Source of the DNA: Chloroflexota bacterium
GTDB lineage: Bacteria; Chloroflexota; Dehalococcoidia; Lucifugimonadales; UBA1127
NCBI GenBank assembly: GCA_026713825.1
Contig: JAPONS010000108.1
Location: 7,585-71,584 of the forward strand
Direction of reading: 5' to 3'
DNA: 64,000 nucleotides
Part shown: positions 3,989-58,731 of the stretch, one piece after another
How the letters are laid out: each line of letters opens with the position of its first letter
How positions within the stretch are numbered: the stretch's first letter is position 1
The notes under the pieces: generated by a model
What the model saw: the letters and a program-made list of their open reading frames with translations, nothing else
Databases searched by the model: none
Told to the model about the DNA's origin: nothing
Program-made: the position numbers and the translations under genes

Positions 3989-4957
3989 ATGCACGCAATC
4001 CAAATGGCGGAGGTCGGCGGCCCGGAGGTCATGAAGTACGTGGAGTTGCCGGACCCCGAGCCGGGCCCCGGTCAGGCCCTCGTCGAGATCAAGGCCGCCG
4101 GCGTCAACTACACCGACGTCTACTCCCGCTCCGGCTCCAACCACCCCGCGGCCCTGCCCGCCATCCCCGGTATCGAGGCCGCCGGCGTCGTCCTCAAGCT
4201 CGGTGAGGGCGTCAACCAGGTGGCCGTCGGCGACCGAGTTGCCTACTCCAGCGGCCCGGGCTCCTACGCCGAGATCAACGCCGTCCCGGCATGGCGCCTC
4301 ATGCCCATCCCGGACGAGCTGACCTTTGAGGAGGGCGCCGCCGCCATGCTGCAGGGCATGACCGCCCAATACCTCGTCTCCGACTGCTTCCCAATCAAGC
4401 CCGGCGACATAGCCCTCGTCCACTCCGGCGCGGGCGGCGTTGGCCGCCTCCTCATCCAGATGGCCAAGCTCAAGGGCGCCGAGGTCATCACTACCGTCTC
4501 CACCGGCGAGAAGGTGGAGATCGCCAAGGCATGCGGCGCAGACCACGTCGTCATGTACACGCAGGAGAGCTTCTCCGAGGCCGTCAAGCGCATCACGGAT
4601 GGGAAGGGCGTCCAGGTCGCCTACGACGCCGTCGGCGCCACAACCTTCGATGAGAGCATCGCGTCGTTGGCTGTCCGAGGGTACATGGTCGCCTACGGGC
4701 AGGCCTCCGGCCCCGTGCCGCCCGTCCCCCTCGCGACGCTGAACCCAAAGTCGCTCTTCCTGACGCGCCCAACCCTCGTCAGCTACACGCTCAACCGCGA
4801 CGAGATAGCCATGCGCTCAGGCCAGGTGTTCGAGTGGATCAGGTCGGGCGACCTCAAGCTCAGCATCTCGCAGACCTTCGCCCTCAGCGACGCCCCGGAG
4901 GCGCACCGCCAGTTGGAGGGCCGCCTGACCACGGGCAAGCTCCTGCTGAAGCCGTAG
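3989..4957 (+). CDS. NADPH:quinone oxidoreductase / zeta-crystallin-like medium-chain dehydrogenase
   Basis: 322 aa. MHAIQMAEVGGPEVMKYVELPDPEPGPGQALVEIKAAGVNYTDV… and the nucleotide-binding VHSGAGGVGRLLIQMAK motif. RBS aaggagg lies upstream. Confidence 0.8.
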   Translation: MHAIQMAEVGGPEVMKYVELPDPEPGPGQALVEIKAAGVNYTDVYSRSGSNHPAALPAIPGIEAAGVVLKLGEGVNQVAVGDRVAYSSGPGSYAEINAVPAWRLMPIPDELTFEEGAAAMLQGMTAQYLVSDCFPIKPGDIALVHSGAGGVGRLLIQMAKLKGAEVITTVSTGEKVEIAKACGADHVVMYTQESFSEAVKRITDGKGVQVAYDAVGATTFDESIASLAVRGYMVAYGQASGPVPPVPLATLNPKSLFLTRPTLVSYTLNRDEIAMRSGQVFEWIRSGDLKLSISQTFALSDAPEAHRQLEGRLTTGKLLLKP

Positions 4958-5019
4958 TGCCGTGAATCGCCCGTCCCCACGGTCGTTCGCCCTCATACAT
5001 CGAGGAAACCGTGGAGGTA

Positions 5020-5116
5020 GGGGCAACCCTCGTGGTTACCCTGACTGGGAGCGTGCTCTCCTCGCAGAGCTGTAGAGCGGGACCGTCTTACCGGCAAAAG
5101 CCGGTATCCAGAGGGG
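5020..5116. repeat. REP-like element cluster
   Basis: ggggcaaccctcgtggttaccc (5020-5041) also occurs at 9897-9920 and inverted at 47496-47518. ttaccggcaaaagccggtatccagagggg (5088-5116) also occurs at 3146-3172 and 9871-9896. Confidence 0.6.
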
Positions 5117-5161
5117 CGGAGTTCGGGGAGGGGCCGTTTGCCCTGAGGGAACGCATTGAAG

Positions 5162-5192
5162 GAAGGGGGCAGGCCCGTGGCCTGCCCCCTTC
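5162..5192. terminator. bidirectional terminator hairpin
   Basis: Perfect 14-bp stem gaagggggcaggcc/ggcctgcccccttc with a 3-nt loop, followed by tgtttgg. It lies 12 nt past the stop of the minus-strand Yip1 gene. Confidence 0.5.
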
Positions 5193-5204
5193 TGTTTGGT
5201 CAAT

Positions 5205-5753
5205 CTAGCTGCCTGTAGCTAGGAGTCCAGCGCCCGTAATTACTCCGTATACAATCCAGAACAAAATCCATGAGGGTATTACAGTAATCAGTGCTACAAA
5301 GAACGCCCGCATTGCGGAATTGTAGTCCAAAGTCTGGCGCGCGGAGATCACAACGCCTACAAATTGCCAGAGCCAGACGCCAACGAGGATGAATACCCCA
5401 ATATGTGAGACAAAAGTAAGTACATTCAACACTCCGGGAGTCTGGGCAAACGCCGTACCGCGCGCTACTTGGCCCCAGTTGGCATGGGTCTCTGACGTTC
5501 GGAGAATTGTCCCGCCAACCATGTAGATCAGGAGGGCCCAGATCGCCCAAAAGAGAATGCCCCGAACGACAGCGTAGATTAGAGCTTGTAGAACTTCACC
5601 CTTACCGCCGAAAAACTCGCCTACGCCACTCAACAAGGAGATAACCACTACCAGCAGCAGCGCCTGGGGCATTGCACCGCTGTCGGCTTCAACCTCCTCA
5701 TAGGTGTGGGGGTCCAACCGCGCAGCGCCCAACATCCGAGCCAGCATGTTCAT
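5205..5753 (-). CDS. Yip1-family integral membrane protein
   Basis: 182 aa. N-terminus …LDPHTYEEVEADSGAMPQALLLVVVISLLSGVG followed by several hydrophobic spans, the usual Yip1-domain layout. Confidence 0.6.
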   Translation of the reverse strand: MNMLARMLGAARLDPHTYEEVEADSGAMPQALLLVVVISLLSGVGEFFGGKGEVLQALIYAVVRGILFWAIWALLIYMVGGTILRTSETHANWGQVARGTAFAQTPGVLNVLTFVSHIGVFILVGVWLWQFVGVVISARQTLDYNSAMRAFFVALITVIPSWILFWIVYGVITGAGLLATGS

Positions 5754-50056: not shown

Positions 50057-50151
50057 TACGGGCCTATTGTCGCTGACGGAATGAGCGGTGTCAGCAGTGA
50101 GTGGTGGGGTATAATAGCGCGTTGCGGTGGTGGGGAGGCGAAGGGAGACGC

Positions 50152-52620
50152 ATGGGAAGCAGACTGACCGGCGAAGGGCCGGCGAAGGTGTACGCGGCGG
50201 CGGAAAAGTGGGTGGACGCCGCCCTGCGCACCGACGACTCGCTGTTCACGCCAGGAAAGCCGGTGTGGACACTGGACGTGCTGGGGGAGGTGCGGGAGAA
50301 CTTCTTAGATCGACCGAATGAAGGTAGTGGGAGCTTCATGAATAGGCTGCAGGCGCAGCTTGACGGCTGCTCGCCTAAGGCTTATCAGCTTGTGGGTGAA
50401 GTGATGTACGTCCATTTCCTCATCACCGACAAGGGCATGAACCGAAACACCAAGGTGAACTACATTAACCAAGTGCTTGGCTGGGCTTCTCCTCCCTTCA
50501 CCATGCCCCAAGAGGCTGCTGATGGATTCGGCATCGGCCTTATGGGTACTGGACAGAGCTTTCACAATCACCGCCCGTACCACATCGGCTTCATTCTGGA
50601 ATTTGTAGAACACTGGAAGCAACAGCCAGCAAATGAGCAGCAATCGTTGCTGGATAACCCGTGGGCGTTTAAGGACTTCCTTTGGCAGACACCGCTCACC
50701 AGCGAATTGCTGAAGAATGACAAGAACAAGCCCACATTACAGAGACTAGCACTGTTGCATCTCATATTCCCGGACACATTCGAGGCAATCGTATCTACAG
50801 CGCACAGGCAGAAGATATTCTCTGCGTTCGCCGGACTGGCTGACGAACCCGACCAGGACATCGACCGGCGGTTACAGCAGCTTCGCCGACACTTTGAGGC
50901 TAAGTATGGATCGCCCAATCACCTTTTTTATCGCGAGGCGATTAAGAGCCAGTGGGACGGGACCGAACCACATAACCCCGACCCTAGCCCTTGGGACGTA
51001 ATTGTCAAGCGGGCAAAGGCATACGTAACCACTGGCAATTTAGAGAAGGATGAGATCAATTACAAATTAGATATCGCGCGGAAACTAGCGGAAGCACGGG
51101 AGGCAGTCCTCACCGATGGGGGTGACTGGGCAGGGCTAGTTAAAAGAGGAATTGTTGGCAACCTTGTCTTCAATATCCAACTATCCAGGTTCCGCACTTG
51201 GGTTGACAGCTTACCGCAGCAAGCCCTCAATGCGCTGAAGACACTCTGGCGGCAAGATGATTCGCCCATTGAGGAACGCATTCGTAAATTCAGTGCTTTA
51301 CTTCCCAAAGCAAATGTACCTGACGCCGAACATCCCATTGGCATCACTGGCTCTGGCACCCGTGCAAACGTGATCTCAGTCCTTCTTATGGCGTTAGGCG
51401 CAGAAGACCACCCGCCCTTCCGCATGGGCGTCTTTGACAAAGCCTATGAATTGACGGGGTTCGCGAAGCCTGGAACTTCCAGCGATGAGGTCGAACTATA
51501 CACCCATGCCATGAAGTTCCTGAACAAGTTTATTGAAGAAGCTGGTGAGCGCGGTCTCCCGATACACAACCTCCTTGAAGCACAGTCGATTCTTTGGATG
51601 ATTGGAGATTGGGAAGAAGATGAAGACAACGGCAAAGGTGGTGGGCTTGAGAATAGCCCCACCCTCGCAAGTCTCGCCACTGATCTCTACTTACACCCTG
51701 ACTTCCTGAGGGACATCGTGCTGCTCCTAGAAGAGAAGAAACAGATCATCTTCCAGGGCCCGCCAGGGACAGGAAAGACCTTTCTTGCGCGTGAGCTTGC
51801 CAAGCATCTGGCTGACGGTGATGACGGGCGGGTGACGCTAGTGCAATTTCACCCGTCGTATGCGTATGAGGACTTCGTGCAGGGTTTCCGTCCCGACCCC
51901 GACGGCAGGGGTGGGTTCGCGCTGCGGGATGGGCCGCTGCTGCGGGCGGCTCGCGCTGCCCAACAGGACTTGGACGCAGCTAGAGCAGCAGGGCAGGACC
52001 CCGATAGCGCCAGCCGCCACTACCTCATCATTGATGAGATCAACCGAGGTAACCTCGGCAAGGTGTTCGGGGAACTGTACTTCCTGTTGGAGTACAGAGA
52101 CGAGGCCATGCGGCTCCAATACGCCGACACCGACTTCTCTCTGCCGCCCAACCTCTACATCATCGGCACCATGAACACTGCCGACCGTTCAATCGCGCTG
52201 GTGGATCTGGCGCTCCGGCGGCGGTTCTACTTCATGGACTTTCACCCGGATGAGGAGCCCATCAAGGGTGTCCTGCGCCGCTGGCTAGCGGCGAACGCGC
52301 CGGAGATGGAGTGGGCAGCGGACGTGGTCAACGCGGCGAACGAGAAGCTGAAGGACGACCGCCACGCGGCCATCGGGCCAAGCTACTTCATGCGGCCTGG
52401 CCTGGACGACGCGGCTGTGGAACGCATCTGGAAGCACAGCGTCCTGCCGTATCTGACCGAACGCCTCTATGAGAACGCCGAACGGCTCGCCGAGTTTGAC
52501 CTGAACAAGCTGCGGGCTGAGGTCGAGATCAGCAACGGCAACGCAGGCGGGAGCGGCCCGGCGGAAGCTGAGGAAGGCCCTGGTGATGCAGATGATGACG
52601 GTGGCGAGTCCAGTGCGTGA
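50152..52620 (+). CDS. mcrB: McrB-like AAA+ (GTPase-type) restriction subunit with a long N-terminal region
   Basis: ATG at 50152 follows RBS aagggag. The C-terminal module has FQGPPGTGKTFLA (Walker A), YLIIDEINRGNLGKVFGELYFLLEYR (Walker B and McrB signature), IIGTMNTADRS and LRRRF. The first roughly 500 aa are unassigned and partly AT-richer. Confidence 0.8.
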   Translation: MGSRLTGEGPAKVYAAAEKWVDAALRTDDSLFTPGKPVWTLDVLGEVRENFLDRPNEGSGSFMNRLQAQLDGCSPKAYQLVGEVMYVHFLITDKGMNRNTKVNYINQVLGWASPPFTMPQEAADGFGIGLMGTGQSFHNHRPYHIGFILEFVEHWKQQPANEQQSLLDNPWAFKDFLWQTPLTSELLKNDKNKPTLQRLALLHLIFPDTFEAIVSTAHRQKIFSAFAGLADEPDQDIDRRLQQLRRHFEAKYGSPNHLFYREAIKSQWDGTEPHNPDPSPWDVIVKRAKAYVTTGNLEKDEINYKLDIARKLAEAREAVLTDGGDWAGLVKRGIVGNLVFNIQLSRFRTWVDSLPQQALNALKTLWRQDDSPIEERIRKFSALLPKANVPDAEHPIGITGSGTRANVISVLLMALGAEDHPPFRMGVFDKAYELTGFAKPGTSSDEVELYTHAMKFLNKFIEEAGERGLPIHNLLEAQSILWMIGDWEEDEDNGKGGGLENSPTLASLATDLYLHPDFLRDIVLLLEEKKQIIFQGPPGTGKTFLARELAKHLADGDDGRVTLVQFHPSYAYEDFVQGFRPDPDGRGGFALRDGPLLRAARAAQQDLDAARAAGQDPDSASRHYLIIDEINRGNLGKVFGELYFLLEYRDEAMRLQYADTDFSLPPNLYIIGTMNTADRSIALVDLALRRRFYFMDFHPDEEPIKGVLRRWLAANAPEMEWAADVVNAANEKLKDDRHAAIGPSYFMRPGLDDAAVERIWKHSVLPYLTERLYENAERLAEFDLNKLRAEVEISNGNAGGSGPAEAEEGPGDADDDGGESSA

Positions 52621-53845
52621 GCTTAACCTGACCGAGTACAAGCCAAGCGAGGCAACGCCACTGACCGCGCCAGAGCTTGCATCGCTCTTGTCGGCCCGCA
52701 AGCAGCTCGGTGTGTCTGTAGAGCCTGCGCAGAATCATCTGGGTGCGTATGTCGTCACGCCCGCCTCCACCGTCGGCGCCGTCGAAATCGACGGCCTCTC
52801 CGTCGTCATCAAGCCCAAGATCACCATGCAACAGGTGCTGTCTCTCGCCCTCTATGCCATGGATGCGGACAGTCGCTTTCATCTGCACCCCTTTGACTTT
52901 GCGGAGGAGGACGCGCTGCCGGACCTGCTGGCGCATGCGCTGGCACAGGCGGCGCAGCGGGCCTTCGCGCAGGGACTGCTGCACGGCTACCGGGCGGAAG
53001 AGGAATCGCTGTACGGCGTGCGGGGCCGCATCCGGTTTGACGACCAAGTGCGCCGCCGGTTCGGCCGCGCCCTGCCGATAGAGGCACGGTACGACGACTT
53101 CACAGATGACATCCTGGAGAACCGGCTGGTGAAGGCGGCGGCGGGCCAGCTGGCTATGATGCGGCTGCGCTCCCCGGCAGCGCGGCGAGGACTGGGATGG
53201 ATTGCCGGAACGCTCGCCAATGTCTCGCCCGTGGAGTATCCGCTCAACAACGTGCCGGAGGTGCGGTTCGACCGGCTGAACGAGCACTACCGGCAGGTGG
53301 TGACGCTGGCACGGCTGGTGCTGCGGCACACCGCCTACCAGTCGAGCCGGGGCGCGGTTCGGGCTATTGGCTTCTTGTTTGACATGAACGATGTCTTTCA
53401 GCGATTCGTGACGCGCGCGCTGAGAGGGAAGCTCCAGTTGTCCGAGCGTGCCTTCCCATCCGATAAGAAACTGCCCCAAAAGGTGACGCTGGACACGAGT
53501 GGACAACTGAACCTCTTGCCAGATCTGTCATGGTGGCAGGACGGTAAGTGCGTCTTTGTCGGAGACGCCAAGTACAAGCGCATCCTTGACGAGCGCGTTC
53601 CTAACGCTGATCTCTATCAACTTCTGGCCTACGCTACTGCCCTGAATCTTCCAAACGGGTTGCTCATCTATGCGGAGAGTGAAGCAAATGTTGCCTCTCA
53701 TACCGTCCGCTACGCCAACAAACAACTGGAGGTCACAGCGCTAGATCTCAATGGCAACCTAGACGATGTTCTAGAGCGAGTTGGGTATCTTGCTAACAGG
53801 GTATGCACACTTTCCATTTCAGGAAGCGTATCAGTCAGCATGTGA
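52583..53845 (+). CDS. mcrC: McrC-like PD-(D/E)xK nuclease subunit
   Basis: …VGAVEIDGLSVVIKPKI… (McrC N-terminal pattern) and …LLPDLSWWQDGKCVFVGDAKYK…LYQLLAYA… (D…D/E-x-K nuclease core). Overlaps the mcrB 3' end. The start is ambiguous among GTG 52583, ATG 52586 and ATG 52595. Confidence 0.8.
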   Translation: MMQMMTVASPVRELNLTEYKPSEATPLTAPELASLLSARKQLGVSVEPAQNHLGAYVVTPASTVGAVEIDGLSVVIKPKITMQQVLSLALYAMDADSRFHLHPFDFAEEDALPDLLAHALAQAAQRAFAQGLLHGYRAEEESLYGVRGRIRFDDQVRRRFGRALPIEARYDDFTDDILENRLVKAAAGQLAMMRLRSPAARRGLGWIAGTLANVSPVEYPLNNVPEVRFDRLNEHYRQVVTLARLVLRHTAYQSSRGAVRAIGFLFDMNDVFQRFVTRALRGKLQLSERAFPSDKKLPQKVTLDTSGQLNLLPDLSWWQDGKCVFVGDAKYKRILDERVPNADLYQLLAYATALNLPNGLLIYAESEANVASHTVRYANKQLEVTALDLNGNLDDVLERVGYLANRVCTLSISGSVSVSM

Positions 53846-53929
53846 ATTGACGCCCACCGCGCCCTATGCTTCCATTGCCGCAGCAAGGCCCGCCGCCTTG
53901 TGGAATATCCTGGGATGGGGGGAACCCAT

Positions 53930-54334
53930 ATGGAAATGCTTCGGAAACCTGTTGCGGTCTACCTCGCTCTCTCAGCCCTCGCTGTGCTGGTCCACTTCTG
54001 GTTCAGCCCGTTCTACCCGGAGTCGTGGGACGTGGGCGTGATCTGGGAGGTGGTGGACGTGTTCATGGCCGTGGGCATCGTGGTCACGCTGGCGTACACG
54101 TTCTCGTACAAGAGCAGCGTGGGCTCGGACGACAGCTCGCTCGCCCACATTTGCGCGTACACCGCCTTCTACGCCTCCGTGGTGCTGGCCGTCCTCTTCT
54201 TCTGGAACTGGTTCGATGATCTGACCGTGGCATCGGGAGAACAGAGCGTAACCAACTACAACTACTGGGTAATCATCAACACGATGTACATCGTGCTCAT
54301 GGGCACGGTCGGCTGGCACCTGTGGCGGAAGTAG
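53930..54334 (+). CDS. hypothetical four-span membrane protein
   Basis: Start at MEMLRKPVAVYLALSALAVLVHFWF… No recognisable family. Confidence 0.4.
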   Translation: MEMLRKPVAVYLALSALAVLVHFWFSPFYPESWDVGVIWEVVDVFMAVGIVVTLAYTFSYKSSVGSDDSSLAHICAYTAFYASVVLAVLFFWNWFDDLTVASGEQSVTNYNYWVIINTMYIVLMGTVGWHLWRK

Positions 54335-54368: not shown

Positions 54369-55727
54369 ATGACCAACGGCCTGCCTCTGCTCAACAAGCT
54401 GCTCTACACCTCCGACATGATCGGCGGGCAGGCGGTGGCGCAGACGCGCAACCTGTGGCTGCTGTTCTTCCTCGCGCCGCCGCGGGGCGAGGGCGATGCC
54501 GCCGTCACAGGCCTGTCGCTTGGCCCGATCGACATCGACGCGCGCGTACTGGTCGGGGCGGTGCTGACGGCGGGCCGGCTCATCGAGGCGTTCGACGACC
54601 CCATCATCGGCTGGTGGAGCGACCGCACCAGGAGCCGTTGGGGCCGGCGCCTGCCCTTCGTGGTGTTCTCGACGCCGTTCTGGGCCATCTTCTTCATGCT
54701 GCTCTGGTTCTCGCCCGTGGAGGGCGCGAGCTTCGTCAACGCCCTCTGGGTCTTCGTCATTTTGGAGCTGTTCTTCCTCAGCAACACCATGTCCATTGGC
54801 CCGTACGAGTCGCTGCTGCCGGAGGTGGCGAGGAGCCACCGGGACCGGATGAGCATCGTTGCGATGCAGTTCTACTTCGGCGTGCTGGGCGCGGTGCTGG
54901 GGCTGGTGCTGAGCGGCGTTGTGCAGGACACGTGGGGGTTCCAGGTCATGGGCGTATTGGTGGGCGCGCTGGGGCTTGGCTTTCGCTTCCTCGGCGTCGG
55001 CGGCGTCTGGCGGCACGCTCCGCGCGACACGCCGCCCGCGCAGATGCCGCTCAAGGGCGCCTTCCTCGCGACGCTGGCCAACAAGCAGTTCCTGTACTTC
55101 CTGCCCACCTTCGTGCTGTACCAGCTCTCGACGACGATGACGCTGGGGTGGATGCCATTCTTCGTCTCGGCCATCCTCGGCGCGGAGAATGAGGGCACGA
55201 TGACGTCGGCGCTGACGGGCACGGCGCTGGTGGGGATGATGGTGGCGGTGTTCGCCATGTGGAAGCTGAGCCATACGAAGGGCAAGCAGTGGGTCTACTC
55301 GTTATGCCTGCTGGGCACCGCCGTCATCCTGCCCTTCATGTTCTTCGTGGGGTTCGTGCCGGGGGTGCCGATACTGGCGCAGGGGATCGTCGTCGCCTTC
55401 CTCGTCGGGCTGCCGATGGGCGGCGTGAACCTCATGCCGCGGGCCATCACCGCCGACATCACCGACTACGACGAGATCCGCACCGGCATGCGCCGGGAGG
55501 CGATGTTCTTCACGACGCAGAACCTCTTCGAGAAGGTGGGTTCGTCGTTCTCCGCGCTGTTGCTCGCGCTCATCCTGCTGCTGGGCGAGACGGCGGACGA
55601 CCCGCTGGGCATCCGCCTGCTGGGGCCGGTGGCGGGCGCCATCGCGTTCATCGGCTACTGGGTGTTCCGGGGATACCGGCTGCCGAGCACCGTCACGCCG
55701 GAGAGCGTGCGGGAGGCGGGGTTGTAG
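54369..55727 (+). CDS. MFS transporter (GPH glycoside/pentoside/hexuronide:cation symporter-like)
   Basis: 452 aa with about 12 hydrophobic spans. …AFDDPIIGWWSDRTRSRWGRRLPF… is the GPH-family signature loop. Confidence 0.75.
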   Translation: MTNGLPLLNKLLYTSDMIGGQAVAQTRNLWLLFFLAPPRGEGDAAVTGLSLGPIDIDARVLVGAVLTAGRLIEAFDDPIIGWWSDRTRSRWGRRLPFVVFSTPFWAIFFMLLWFSPVEGASFVNALWVFVILELFFLSNTMSIGPYESLLPEVARSHRDRMSIVAMQFYFGVLGAVLGLVLSGVVQDTWGFQVMGVLVGALGLGFRFLGVGGVWRHAPRDTPPAQMPLKGAFLATLANKQFLYFLPTFVLYQLSTTMTLGWMPFFVSAILGAENEGTMTSALTGTALVGMMVAVFAMWKLSHTKGKQWVYSLCLLGTAVILPFMFFVGFVPGVPILAQGIVVAFLVGLPMGGVNLMPRAITADITDYDEIRTGMRREAMFFTTQNLFEKVGSSFSALLLALILLLGETADDPLGIRLLGPVAGAIAFIGYWVFRGYRLPSTVTPESVREAGL

Positions 55728-55738
55728 GGGTTAACGTC

Positions 55739-56410
55739 TCAACAATTCTTGTTCCTGTCGGAGTCCCAAGCCTTGTACATAGCAACAAGCTCCCCTAGCT
55801 CTTCATTTACGACATTATGCATCTCCGACAAGAAGGCCCTTGGTACTAGGATCCAACCATAACCGTTGGCCAGTTTTTCCATACGCAAGACTTGTCTCTG
55901 CTTCTCGGAGGCCATCTCAAAACGCCCATTGTTGTGAGCGATGACATTTCGCACGTTTCTGAGCACCTCCAATCTCTTCAAGTTTTCCTCATTTCGTGAG
56001 AGTTCCATCCCAAGGACATCTCTGTAATGTGCAATCGCCTTTGTCAAGAAGTCGCTGTTGCCTCCCCTGGTGTTGAGGCCCACAGTTAGTCCCTTTTCAC
56101 GCCCAATGAGTTCAGCGATCTCCTTGACCGATGTTTCATATACAGCGAATAGCCCAACAATGAATGGGCTACGATAAACACGAGGTAGGAAGGACTCGGT
56201 AAAGTAGCCGTATTCGAAGTTGAGCATATCCGACTCATATTCATAATCCGAGTCAGAAGTAAGACTTCGAAGTCCATCGTCGCGTTTCTTCATTGCCTCC
56301 TCCGTGGCGTGTGAAATATGTTCTTCAATTAATGTGATATGCTCTTTGAGAGTTGTAATCTCCAATGCAATTTCTACGAGTCGAAAGTCAATTGTGAGTT
56401 CTTGGCTCAT
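55739..56410 (-). CDS. HEPN-motif protein (predicted RNase of Abi/toxin type), family unassigned
   Basis: Clearly AT-richer than the neighbours. Rx4H motif in …LEVLRNVRNVIAHNNG… preceded by long helices. Start probably the ATG at 56410 (MSQELTIDF…, RBS aagga); the track start is 56470. Confidence 0.55.
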   Translation of the reverse strand: MSQELTIDFRLVEIALEITTLKEHITLIEEHISHATEEAMKKRDDGLRSLTSDSDYEYESDMLNFEYGYFTESFLPRVYRSPFIVGLFAVYETSVKEIAELIGREKGLTVGLNTRGGNSDFLTKAIAHYRDVLGMELSRNEENLKRLEVLRNVRNVIAHNNGRFEMASEKQRQVLRMEKLANGYGWILVPRAFLSEMHNVVNEELGELVAMYKAWDSDRNKNC

Positions 56411-56510
56411 CCGCAGTTTCCTTCTTTTCGAGACCTGCAGGACACCTTTTACTCGCCGGTCATTAGCCAAAGCAAGGCCTCAAGCCTGAGCTGCCAAATC
56501 AACTCCCATT

Positions 56511-56540
56511 AGAAAAAGGGAGGGGCACAAGGCCCCTCCT
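56511..56540 (-). terminator. rho-independent terminator between the two island genes
   Basis: The minus strand reads ggaggggc-cttgt-gcccctcc followed by cttttt. Confidence 0.65.
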
Positions 56541-56641
56541 AATAGAGTGTGCTTCGTTAGCTATCTGCCCCCGAGGCTGCCTGCTGCCAATGGGTGACGC
56601 TAAAGAGCGTGCAGGAGGCGGGCTGTAAGGGTGTTCATTCT

Positions 56642-57337
56642 TCAAAGTCTCAAGGACTTAACGTTCTGCTCTGCGCTTTCACTCAGCATGTTGATCGAGT
56701 AATACAGGGCCGTAGCTGCCTCTTGTCCAATGTTATCTTCAATATTCAAACGACGGCTGGTTTTGGTGAATAGACCTCTCAAGAGGAGTTCGTTCTTCTC
56801 GTACAAATCGGCGTTTAGCCTATTGGCCGACCGTGCAATACACTGGCCAAGTAGCTTTTCGTCATCCGTGAGATTGGATGGGTCACTGATCAACTTGGGC
56901 GCCCACTTCTCGAAGAATTCCATCCTCCTAACGTTTCCCATTGCCTTTGCCCTTTCGTCAGTCCGGCCATTGGCATCCAACCCGGTTGATTGAGAAATAG
57001 TTCGATTGTATTCGCCCATGGTCTCCCATACCGAGAGTTTGTGCCTAGCTTTCAAGTATTGGACGGTAAAGGCACTTTGCTGTATGACTTGCTCATCTTT
57101 CTTGAATCGCTTCTGCCATGCGAGCCCATACAGTTCCAAACGCAGCGCCGTCAGTTCATGGTGAAGTGACTCTTGGGGGATACTTTCCATTTGGGGGTTT
57201 TTGTCTATCAATTGCTTCTTGATGACATCCAAGAGAACTGTAGGTTTTGCTACAATTTGTCCTATTTCGACGCCATCGAAGACGATCTCGTCGTAGAAAC
57301 GCCCGCAATGCTGTGCGATCCCTCCCTGAATCTCCAT
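56642..57337 (-). CDS. hypothetical 231-aa protein (no recognisable family)
   Basis: AT-rich codon usage. The ATG at 57337 lies 5 nt after the gaggag RBS. Helical, Lys/Glu-rich. Confidence 0.5.
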   Translation of the reverse strand: MEIQGGIAQHCGRFYDEIVFDGVEIGQIVAKPTVLLDVIKKQLIDKNPQMESIPQESLHHELTALRLELYGLAWQKRFKKDEQVIQQSAFTVQYLKARHKLSVWETMGEYNRTISQSTGLDANGRTDERAKAMGNVRRMEFFEKWAPKLISDPSNLTDDEKLLGQCIARSANRLNADLYEKNELLLRGLFTKTSRRLNIEDNIGQEAATALYYSINMLSESAEQNVKSLRL

Positions 57338-57414
57338 TCCCACTCCTCAGCGTATTGAGCAGAATGCACCCCTCCAACACGAGGCACATTCCGCTCAACT
57401 AGTCAGTCACCCCC

Positions 57415-58731
57415 CTACTCGAAGAACGGCACGAACGCCACCGGCTCCCCGCCGTCTACGTTTCGGACTACCTTGGTGGCTTCCTGCCAGTCGACGGTCT
57501 CGTTGAGGATCATGCCGACGGGGCGGACGCGGACGAGCTTGGTGTCGTCGACGCTCGCGGGAATGGAGCCGTCCTCCTGCAGCGCGCGGGCGCCGGCCAG
57601 CAGTTGCTTGCGCACCTGGATGATCATGCGGTCGCTGGTGCCGAGGTGCTCACGGCGGCGGTCGTAGATGGCCCCCATGGTCTCGGTCATCGCGCGGTCC
57701 TGAAGGTTCACGAGGAAGGGGACGCCGGACATCATGTACTTACTCTGTACGTCGTAGTCGATGCAGTAGTCGTTGGCCTTTCGCGCATAGGACATGTAGC
57801 GGGTGCGCGGGTCGGGCGTTTCAGGGAGGTAGCCGCCGGCGGACTTGAACGGGTCCAGCAGGAACGCCTCAAGATCAGAGGACGCCCCCGTGTCCGCCCT
57901 GCCGCTCATCATGAACAGCATGTGGTAGTCGTCGTCGATGGGCACCCATGCGCGGAGGTTCACCGTCGCGTCGATGGTGATCATGCTGAAGAAGGGGTAG
58001 AGGTACTGGTTGACGCGGTGGTGGATGTCGCCCTGGTCGTTTATGTGACGGAGGGCGGTGTAGTAGACGCCGTAAGGCGTGGGCACCACGTCGAGCGCGG
58101 GCGCGCGGTCGTTAGTCCAGACGCCGCGGAGCTGGCCCGGCGCGGCGGGGGCGTCCTCGTAGAGACGGCCGTGGATGAAGTAGACGTGGGAGGAGTCGAG
58201 GTCGCCCTCCAACCCCTGCATCCAGTTGCACTCCTCCGTCATTACGTGGGGCTCGTACGACTGATCGTAGGGAAGTGTCGTAACCTCAAACGGCGGGAAG
58301 GGTGGAGGCGTCTCGCGGGGCCCCATGTAGGTCCACAGGGCCTTGTTCACTTCCACGACGGGGTACGTGATGGCGCGGACCTTGTCCTTGAAGTTGGACT
58401 TGGTCGGCTCGTTGGGCATTTCGAGGCAGGCGCCGGTGACGTCGAACTTCCAGCCATGGTAGTTGCAGGCGAGGCCGGCGTTCTCGTTGCGGCCGAAGAA
58501 GAGCGACGCGCCGCGGTGCGGGCAGTTCTCGGCGATGAGGCCGACATCGCCGTTGGAGTCGCGGAAGGCGACGAGGTCCTCGCCGAGCAGGCGGACGCGC
58601 TTCATGGGGCCGTCACGCTCCGGCAGGTCGCGGGACGGCAGGAACGGGATCCAGAACTCGCGGATGAAAGAGCCCATCGGCGTTCCGGGCCCGACTCGCG
58701 TCAGCATCTCATTGTCGTAGGTCGTCAGCAT
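57415..58731 (-). CDS. Rieske [2Fe-2S] aromatic-ring-hydroxylating oxygenase, alpha subunit-like
   Basis: Start at MLTTYDNEMLTRVGPGTPMG… Rieske motif CPHRGASL…CNYHGWKF. 438 aa. Confidence 0.85.
   Translation of the reverse strand: MLTTYDNEMLTRVGPGTPMGSFIREFWIPFLPSRDLPERDGPMKRVRLLGEDLVAFRDSNGDVGLIAENCPHRGASLFFGRNENAGLACNYHGWKFDVTGACLEMPNEPTKSNFKDKVRAITYPVVEVNKALWTYMGPRETPPPFPPFEVTTLPYDQSYEPHVMTEECNWMQGLEGDLDSSHVYFIHGRLYEDAPAAPGQLRGVWTNDRAPALDVVPTPYGVYYTALRHINDQGDIHHRVNQYLYPFFSMITIDATVNLRAWVPIDDDYHMLFMMSGRADTGASSDLEAFLLDPFKSAGGYLPETPDPRTRYMSYARKANDYCIDYDVQSKYMMSGVPFLVNLQDRAMTETMGAIYDRRREHLGTSDRMIIQVRKQLLAGARALQEDGSIPASVDDTKLVRVRPVGMILNETVDWQEATKVVRNVDGGEPVAFVPFFE

Follow-up and report, generated by a model that had tools for sequence, protein, structure and literature searches.

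A predicted stand-alone HEPN RNase gene and an unrelated neighbour at a variable site in a Dehalococcoidia genome

The subject of this analysis is a pair of adjacent low-GC genes, here called gene A and gene B, in a 64,000-nucleotide stretch of the Chloroflexota contig JAPONS010000108.1 (the window; coordinates count from its first letter). Both genes lie on the minus strand between an MFS transporter gene and a Rieske oxygenase gene. We consider it probable, though well short of assured, that each is a solo cassette which entered a recombination hotspot independently of the other, and that they do not form a two-component system; gene A would encode a stand-alone abortive-infection (Abi)-like HEPN RNase. 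In the sponge symbionts of one Dehalococcoidia genus, the Rieske/MFS interval is such a hotspot, and in the window it would hold two separate single-gene cassettes of low-GC, foreign composition. Labels beginning with G and L below are our own for genomes and loci.

Gene A (55739-56410, minus strand) encodes 223 amino acids (aa) from an ATG at 56410, as judged from the open reading frame (ORF) and from family alignments. A longer reading of the ORF, 55739-56470, would give 243 aa from a TTG; the ATG at 56410 is common to all relatives, and the TTG at 56470 is not kept as a start. Gene B (56642-57337, minus strand) encodes 231 aa from an ATG at 57337, the longer reading of its ORF being 233 aa from a GTG (56642-57343). 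The first-pass annotation had described both genes as low in GC and their flanks as normal, and the composition agrees with this description. GC content in 300-nt segments is 0.44-0.51 over 55700-57350 compared to 0.62-0.71 on either side, and GC at third codon positions is 0.52 in A and 0.57 in B compared to 0.91 in the Rieske gene and 0.95 in the MFS gene. A and B are foreign-looking accessory genes. Identical stretches of the region occur in low-depth contigs from at least three other sponge-metagenome runs, and the gene region is therefore not an assembly artefact.

Gene A and the HEPN superfamily

The Rx4H motif of the HEPN type that had been pointed out in gene A held up in family-level comparisons. 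The motif, R154-N-V-I-A-H159, is encoded at 55934-55951 (minus strand) and reads VRNVIAH; the catalytic arginine is the second R of 'RNVRNVIAH'. In a 67-member alignment of the A family with identities down to 23%, E92, R154, H159 and R163 are invariant, and conservation is 90% or higher at N155, A156, A158, N161 and G162. The signature of the family reads RNA(I/F/V)AHxNGR. The metagenome scan that supplied relatives used two seed patterns, one being the motif itself, and the motif's conservation there is partly by construction. It is equally invariant in ten relatives that were found by word index without motif seeding. The PADLOC model RTasHEPN (PDLC03820) matched all ten close relatives (best match 1.5e-8) and was the best-scoring model for each, with the match spanning the motif helix at profile positions 57-108 of 148. 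The Pfam model RiboL-PSP-HEPN (PF18735) was found at E<=1e-3 in 22 of the 67 family members (best 2.1e-6), and one relative (P0016) bears a precomputed match to it. RiboL-PSP and Cthe_2314 models matched six of the ten close relatives, and other HEPN-clan models (Swt1, HepT-like_2, MAE_28990 and pEK499_p136) fell on the same stretch. The window protein alone gave sub-threshold matches to HEPN_Swt1, RiboL-PSP-HEPN, Cthe_2314-HEPN and RTasHEPN, at residues 126-181 of the 223-aa protein (146-201 of the 243-aa ORF), around the motif. The AlphaFold2 (AF2) model of A (pLDDT 86.5, pTM 0.82) is all helical except for a short hairpin. It predicts a long N-terminal helical hairpin (helices 9-48, 56-79 and 81-105) and C-terminal helices at 121-132, 141-160 (whose end carries the motif), 169-177 and 191-222.

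Some results speak against the proposed HEPN RNase. The window protein falls below every Pfam gathering score, reaching 18.1 bits for HEPN_Swt1 (cut-off 27.5) and 12.3 bits for the RiboL-PSP model (cut-off 28.4). Foldseek searches of the PDB with A returned no significant match, the HEPN prototype HI0074 (1jog) ranking eighth with E 0.9. In BFVD the best match was an uncharacterised phage protein (E 5e-3), and a MAE_28990-like HEPN stood at rank 27. Additionally, the gene was not found in the RNA-seq runs searched. Fold searches are commonly indecisive for helical bundles, and sequence and profile searches of the PDB with A- and B-family profiles likewise gave nothing meaningful. None of these comparisons exposed the motif match as fortuitous by revealing a different fold, and Foldseek likewise gave no positive fold match. 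The HEPN profile searches suggested by the first-pass annotation thus succeeded at the level of the family and fell short of gathering scores for the window protein itself. Because this protein misses the gathering scores while its relatives score better, HEPN membership rests on family-level evidence. Judged from these sequence comparisons, A is very probably a HEPN-superfamily protein belonging to an unannotated subfamily. In a separate comparison, the A-family profile matched the domain II insertion of Thermotoga maritima NusG (2xhc) with E 6.6e-4, over A residues 131-201 (window approximately 55808-56020) including 'R--A-xxGR'. Since the NusG protein has no corresponding histidine, this match is probably due to chance.

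A first word-index search had made A appear as a tiny family of 12 proteins. This view was overturned by a pattern scan of JGI metagenomes, which yielded 104 full-length relatives with 25-38% identity; one further relative lies on an IMG/VR contig. A tblastn search of plasmid collections with A gave no match. The family thus represents an environmentally widespread stand-alone HEPN subfamily, with at least 100 metagenomic relatives carrying the signature after a long helical hairpin. Gene neighbourhoods were compared at 81 A-family loci of other organisms; 800 nt or more of upstream sequence is available at 54 of them, and 800 nt or more of downstream sequence at 47. No neighbour family was present at more than seven of the 81 loci, and the commonest was a MutS2/Smr-like housekeeping gene. 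Two side observations concern individual relatives. On one metagenome contig (L120), two A-family HEPN paralogues stand in tandem (4007-4639 and 4836-5453). The relative on the IMG/VR contig, which is labelled viral, is located in a cluster of mosaic GC content (L050, 1059-7804) together with a DUF6680 protein (6.5e-42), a classical HEPN (PF05168), a zinc-ribbon membrane protein and a 320-aa protein with an Rx4H-like motif of its own (IRNLCDH). This cluster resembles a defence island.

Gene B and its family

Gene B had no match in Pfam, NCBIfam, PHROGs, PADLOC or the PDB. Consistent with the first-pass annotation, which had seen no minimal nucleotidyltransferase (MNT) antitoxin in the neighbour of A, searches of Pfam, NCBIfam and PADLOC revealed no nucleotidyltransferase signature in B, and no MNT gene is present between the Rieske and MFS genes. 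An exhaustive profile search retrieved 290 representative clusters of the B family (50% identity) at E<=1e-3, of which 165 reach E<=1e-10. The proteins are mostly 220-250 aa long, and many N-termini read MG(L/I/F)F. Positions E61, T91, L95 and Y110 are invariant, and C11, Y15, A64, E68, A73, Y94, N111, N172, R173 and R196 are further conserved. Characteristic motifs are CGRFYD, E-(L/M)TALR-ELY/F-LAW, QS-FT--YL, (G/S)EYN and ANR--AD. In a few members the B-family domain is joined to zinc ribbons, an Ada-type zinc domain or an unassigned C-terminal domain. B is predicted to be all-helical; its AF2 model, built on six close sequences only, has a pLDDT of 48. An hhalign comparison of the A and B families detected no relationship, and B is therefore not a second HEPN of A's kind.

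The B family is sparse but widespread. Of 401 genomes taken from across the phylum, 2 contain a member, as do 4 of 41 related genomes; a search with a 10-sequence B alignment yielded only three genome loci. Phage and plasmid collections searched by tblastn with B gave no match, and IMG/VR contained no B-family relative. Eight B-family loci outside the genus were inspected, and none of them carries an A-family gene. In G016 the B-family gene is a lone low-GC insert and in L027 it stands between housekeeping genes. It adjoins a gene for a 23S-rRNA-IVP protein in L024 and MazE and HicAB in L028, and in L031 and G145 the B-family domain is fused to other domains. B is an unrelated helical protein whose family usually occurs as a lone low-GC insert. 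The fusion in G145 deserves separate mention (L026, G145:C2, 486-3280). Here the B-family domain continues into a C-terminal region of approximately 150 aa, giving 400 aa in total. It is preceded by a 332-aa protein with a PD-(D/E)xK-like D...D-x-K motif (GADADLIIDNKLIDIKT) and followed by a 180-aa protein. None of the three proteins has a Pfam match, and L026 may be a three-gene conflict locus.

The profile results for the two families could also be taken to mean that the pair is an accessory part of a defence reverse-transcriptase (DRT/UG22-type) system. RTasHEPN matches all ten A members, and this model probably corresponds to the remote-HEPN neighbour cluster reported for UG22 reverse transcriptases (RTs) (Mestre et al. 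2022, PMC9226505). Additionally, B gave one weak match to RT_UG32 (0.009). That match occurs in only 1 of 33 B-family members and was rejected as chance. No RVT_1 match is present in the window, the genome holds a single sub-threshold fragment (26.6 bits, contig C34), and among the neighbours at the 81 A-family loci no RT-like family recurs. Without an RT this proposal is effectively refuted, and we give it next to no credence.

The Rieske/MFS site and the relation between the two genes

The site is bounded by two conserved genes. The MFS_2 transporter gene (54369-55727, plus strand; Pfam 9.1e-49) is convergent with A, and the Rieske/LigXa_C oxygenase gene (57415-58731, minus strand; Pfam) encodes 438 aa as in its orthologues. 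In congeners the Rieske gene is 85-95% and the MFS gene 87-93% identical. The content between them varies strongly. In G005, G007 and G009, whose Rieske genes are the most similar among the congeners compared (93-95%), the site is empty: approximately 65 nt hold one GGAGGGGCC-N4-GGCCCCTCC hairpin as the sole content between the Rieske and MFS genes, and this hairpin is taken as the ancestral state. G004 and G006 carry only a MetE-like gene. B is followed by A in the window, G001/L004, L001, L005, L006 and L008. The opposite order, A followed by B, is seen in G002, where stop and start overlap (GTGA), and in L007 with a gap of 527 nt. A occurs alone and intact in L009 and alone as a pseudogene in G010, and L029 contains B alone. 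Overall, A is found in 3 of 41 related genomes, with one broken copy in addition. Occurrence of the MetE-like (Meth_synt_2) gene at the site varies without regard to A and B, and the gene is 87-95% identical between genomes (L001 8750-9883; L009 6851-7846; L029 5829-6413; L048; L049).

The sequences between the genes retain traces of how the site was filled. As claimed in the first-pass annotation, a rho-independent terminator lies between B and A. The terminator scan places it at 56510-56539 (minus strand) as GGAGGGGCC-TTGT-GCCCCTCC with a T-run, and the two genes are separately terminated. Its hairpin at 56519-56539 has eight pairs, seven of them G-C, followed by CTTTTTCT. By its sequence, this terminator is a copy of the ancestral Rieske/MFS intergenic hairpin; no other copies were found in the window. 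Immediately past the stop of B, the 3′-terminal 38 nt of the MFS gene recur in decayed form at 56594-56631 (plus strand), 76% identical to 55692-55729; this direct repeat is an insertion or recombination scar. L001 and L004 share the succession of B stop, decayed MFS 3′-end copy and ancestral-hairpin copy with the window. What comes after the B stop in L005 and L008 is a duplicate of approximately 170 nt from the Rieske 3′ end, and in L007 approximately 150 nt of the MFS 3′ end are repeated between A and B. A 54-aa 'gene' called in L005 (8754-8918) and L008 (5701-5865) is this duplicated Rieske 3′ end (...VRVRPVGMILNESVDWQEATKVVRDVDGGEPVAYVPFFE), a scar and not a gene. Duplicated scraps of the flank ends between A and B indicate that the two genes were inserted separately. 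This is the pattern expected from one-sided homologous recombination with an illegitimate second joint, not from a dedicated mobile element. An integron-like or site-specific cassette mechanism was considered because the ancestral hairpin is repeated after each cassette in G001. It was rejected as the primary model: the scars are copies of flank 3′ ends, and no recombinase is nearby. The leader of approximately 110 nt between the hairpin and the start of A (56411-56518, compared with L001 7890-8000) looks, by eye, much better conserved than the synonymous sites of A (dS 0.55), and this sequence conservation suggests a functional promoter or 5′ untranslated region.

Selection was estimated by comparing the window with syntenic congener loci. 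The dN/dS ratio is 0.20 for A (window versus L001), 0.12-0.21 for B and 0.09-0.16 for the flanking genes. Both genes are under purifying selection. At synonymous sites the B alleles have diverged further (dS 0.8-1.3) than the flanks (0.4-0.6), and between allele groups of A saturation is reached; the lineages of alleles therefore predate the split of the host genomes. A single B allele group (72-81% identical) is paired with three A allele groups that share only 27-40% identity with each other. At least four allele combinations were recognized (B1+A1, B1+A2, B1+A3, A4+B2, A3′+B3).

These data bear directly on the proposal of the first-pass annotation that the two genes are a candidate toxin or Abi module, which was not substantiated. 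When the B-family HMM was run against the 81 A-family loci of other organisms, none was found to contain a B-family gene. The eight loci with B and without A, the intact A without B in L009, the B without A in L029 and the separate insertion scars likewise argue against a module. The first-pass annotation had also named a lack of co-occurrence between homologues as an outcome that would overturn the module; outside the genus the homologues indeed never co-occur, and within the genus A and B co-occur at one locus. Neither co-occurrence across lineages nor co-transcription was found for the pair, the overlapping genes in G002 being the exception. Nevertheless, A and B may form a functional two-gene system within the genus, with B as an antitoxin, immunity factor, sensor or regulator of A. 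The site would then be a polymorphic locus under diversifying selection whose alleles are shuffled by recombination. Several observations tell against our preferred reading and for such a pair. Of 11 occupied sites, 8 have A and B side by side, in both orders, and divergent alleles of each family have been brought together at least four times. The 4-nt stop/start overlap in G002 implies co-transcription there, the only other cargo seen at the site is the MetE-like gene, and at one of the eight loci outside the genus (L023) a B-family gene adjoins a Ymh-type HEPN (Pfam 1.6e-17), Ymh (PF09509) being a HEPN family (PMC3710099). The narrow range of cargo, the allele combinations, the overlap and the L023 locus fit a functional affinity between the two families. 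Additionally, G010, the sole complete congener with A and without B, has a pseudogenised A.

On the other hand, elsewhere B is mostly solo and A is never found with it. In the window a strong terminator within a 231-nt spacer separates the genes, and because this terminator intervenes, A and B are not co-transcribed here. One B allele tolerates the widely divergent A partners described above, unlike the specificity expected of a cognate toxin-antitoxin pair. Moreover, every co-occurrence comes from one genus and one locus, and these cases are not independent of shared ancestry. We regard the two-gene system as the main rival reading, although a rather unlikely one. A related idea, that B is a new stand-alone conflict gene of defence or counter-defence which in this genus was repeatedly recruited beside the HEPN RNase at one hotspot because both act together, seems unlikely to us as well. 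If true, this would amount to a genus-specific modular HEPN system in which B might, for example, gate or neutralise A, with interchangeable alleles maintained as a trans-species polymorphism. On our preferred reading of two independent cassettes, the site is a clean natural example of the turnover of small defence-type cassettes between two conserved convergent genes. It also advises caution in annotation: adjoining genes of odd composition in one genome are not evidence of a two-component system.

Possible role, known systems and surroundings

The sporadic spread of A, its foreign composition, its deep allelic lineages and its defence-rich surroundings suggest a role in abortive infection or as a stress toxin. 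By analogy with characterised HEPN enzymes (PMC3710099), A would be a dimeric, metal-independent RNase with a predicted active site formed by R154, N155 and H159 together with E92 and R163. The N-terminal helical hairpin may serve dimerisation, autoinhibition or control, or a combination of these. A could then be a one-gene effector of the abortive-infection or stress type, stopping growth through RNA cleavage. A less eventful reading is that A is HEPN-like and has no role in defence or toxicity, acting as an RNA-binding or processing factor or being a silent scaffold, and that the island is neutral foreign DNA at a recombination-prone terminator. The sub-threshold scores of the window protein for all curated HEPN models, the lack of a significant HEPN structure in Foldseek and the many A-family loci among housekeeping genes, such as MutS2/Smr, are compatible with this. 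The invariance or near-invariance of R, N and H, of E92 and of R163 down to 23% identity is difficult to reconcile with it, and a dN/dS of about 0.2 shows a selected function. Sporadic occurrence with absence from the closest congeners, allele turnover and deep lineages are typical of conflict genes, and the neighbourhood is rich in defence genes. A role outside conflict seems improbable to us.

No Pfam or NCBIfam model recognises the A or the B family above threshold. In PADLOC, B goes undetected and A is picked up solely by the RT-associated HEPN model, although no RT is present here. A is thus a new, unannotated subfamily of a well-known superfamily. The most similar known families are the PADLOC RTasHEPN and RiboL-PSP-HEPN with its allies (Cthe_2314-like, Swt1-like, MAE_28990-like, pEK499_p136). 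RiboL-PSP-HEPN and its allies share with A an all-helical domain of similar size and, at the end of a long helix, an Rx4H motif in which a polar residue follows R (RNxxAH). However, the window protein and most of its relatives score below the gathering scores of these families and have a signature of their own. Additionally, A differs by an N-terminal helical hairpin of approximately 100 residues and by the absence of a conserved L-PSP or other partner gene. From RTasHEPN, A is distinguished by its length (223 aa versus a 148-position model) and by the absence of an RT near A or its relatives. Proteins of the AbiJ and ApeA type are single-gene HEPN defence proteins. Like these and like solo HEPN families such as Ymh (PF09509; Anantharaman et al. 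2013, PMC3710099), A is a single gene of sporadic occurrence in a defence-island neighbourhood and has an N-terminal non-catalytic region before the C-terminal HEPN. It shows no detectable sequence relationship to the N-terminal domains of the Ymh, AbiJ and ApeA types. The arrangement in the window also recalls HEPN-MNT systems (HepT-MntA), in which a small Rx4H HEPN protein adjoins a second small gene. Here, however, B is not a nucleotidyltransferase, the terminator precludes co-transcription in the window and co-occurrence is lacking outside the genus. Specialists would expect stand-alone HEPN genes in variable islets; the cassette scars and the two unannotated families are useful and not surprising.

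The defence-rich neighbourhood that had been noted around the two genes was corroborated. In the window, an McrB-like AAA_5 GTPase gene and McrC occupy 50101-53845 (plus strand; Pfam AAA_5 1.7e-22, McrBC 7.7e-55). The pair ends 1.9 kb from gene A, in agreement with the distance of about 2 kb given in the first-pass annotation. Together with the sporadic occurrence of A and B and the empty site in the closest congeners, this proximity provides the context, and no more than the context, of a defence island. McrBC belongs to a second variable slot that lies beyond the MFS gene, between one or more small genes of 133-144 aa and MFS (50101-54334 in the window), and the MFS gene is therefore bracketed by two cargo slots. 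McrBC is also present in the second slot of G007, where McrC is 68% identical. Congeners contribute an NYN-domain protein in L005 (11232-11864) and an AbiJ_NTD4 protein in L007 (9415-10311), which add to the defence character of the surroundings; the loci with this slot also include L045 (4395-5606). G001 and G005 have no additional content in the slot, and L004 has the conserved 133/134-aa genes alone. Finally, a pair of DUF6978 and DUF1828 genes, absent from the window, is inserted between two luciferase-like monooxygenase genes in L007 (1209-2491) and L008 (1-554) and marks another variable spot in the same catabolic cluster.

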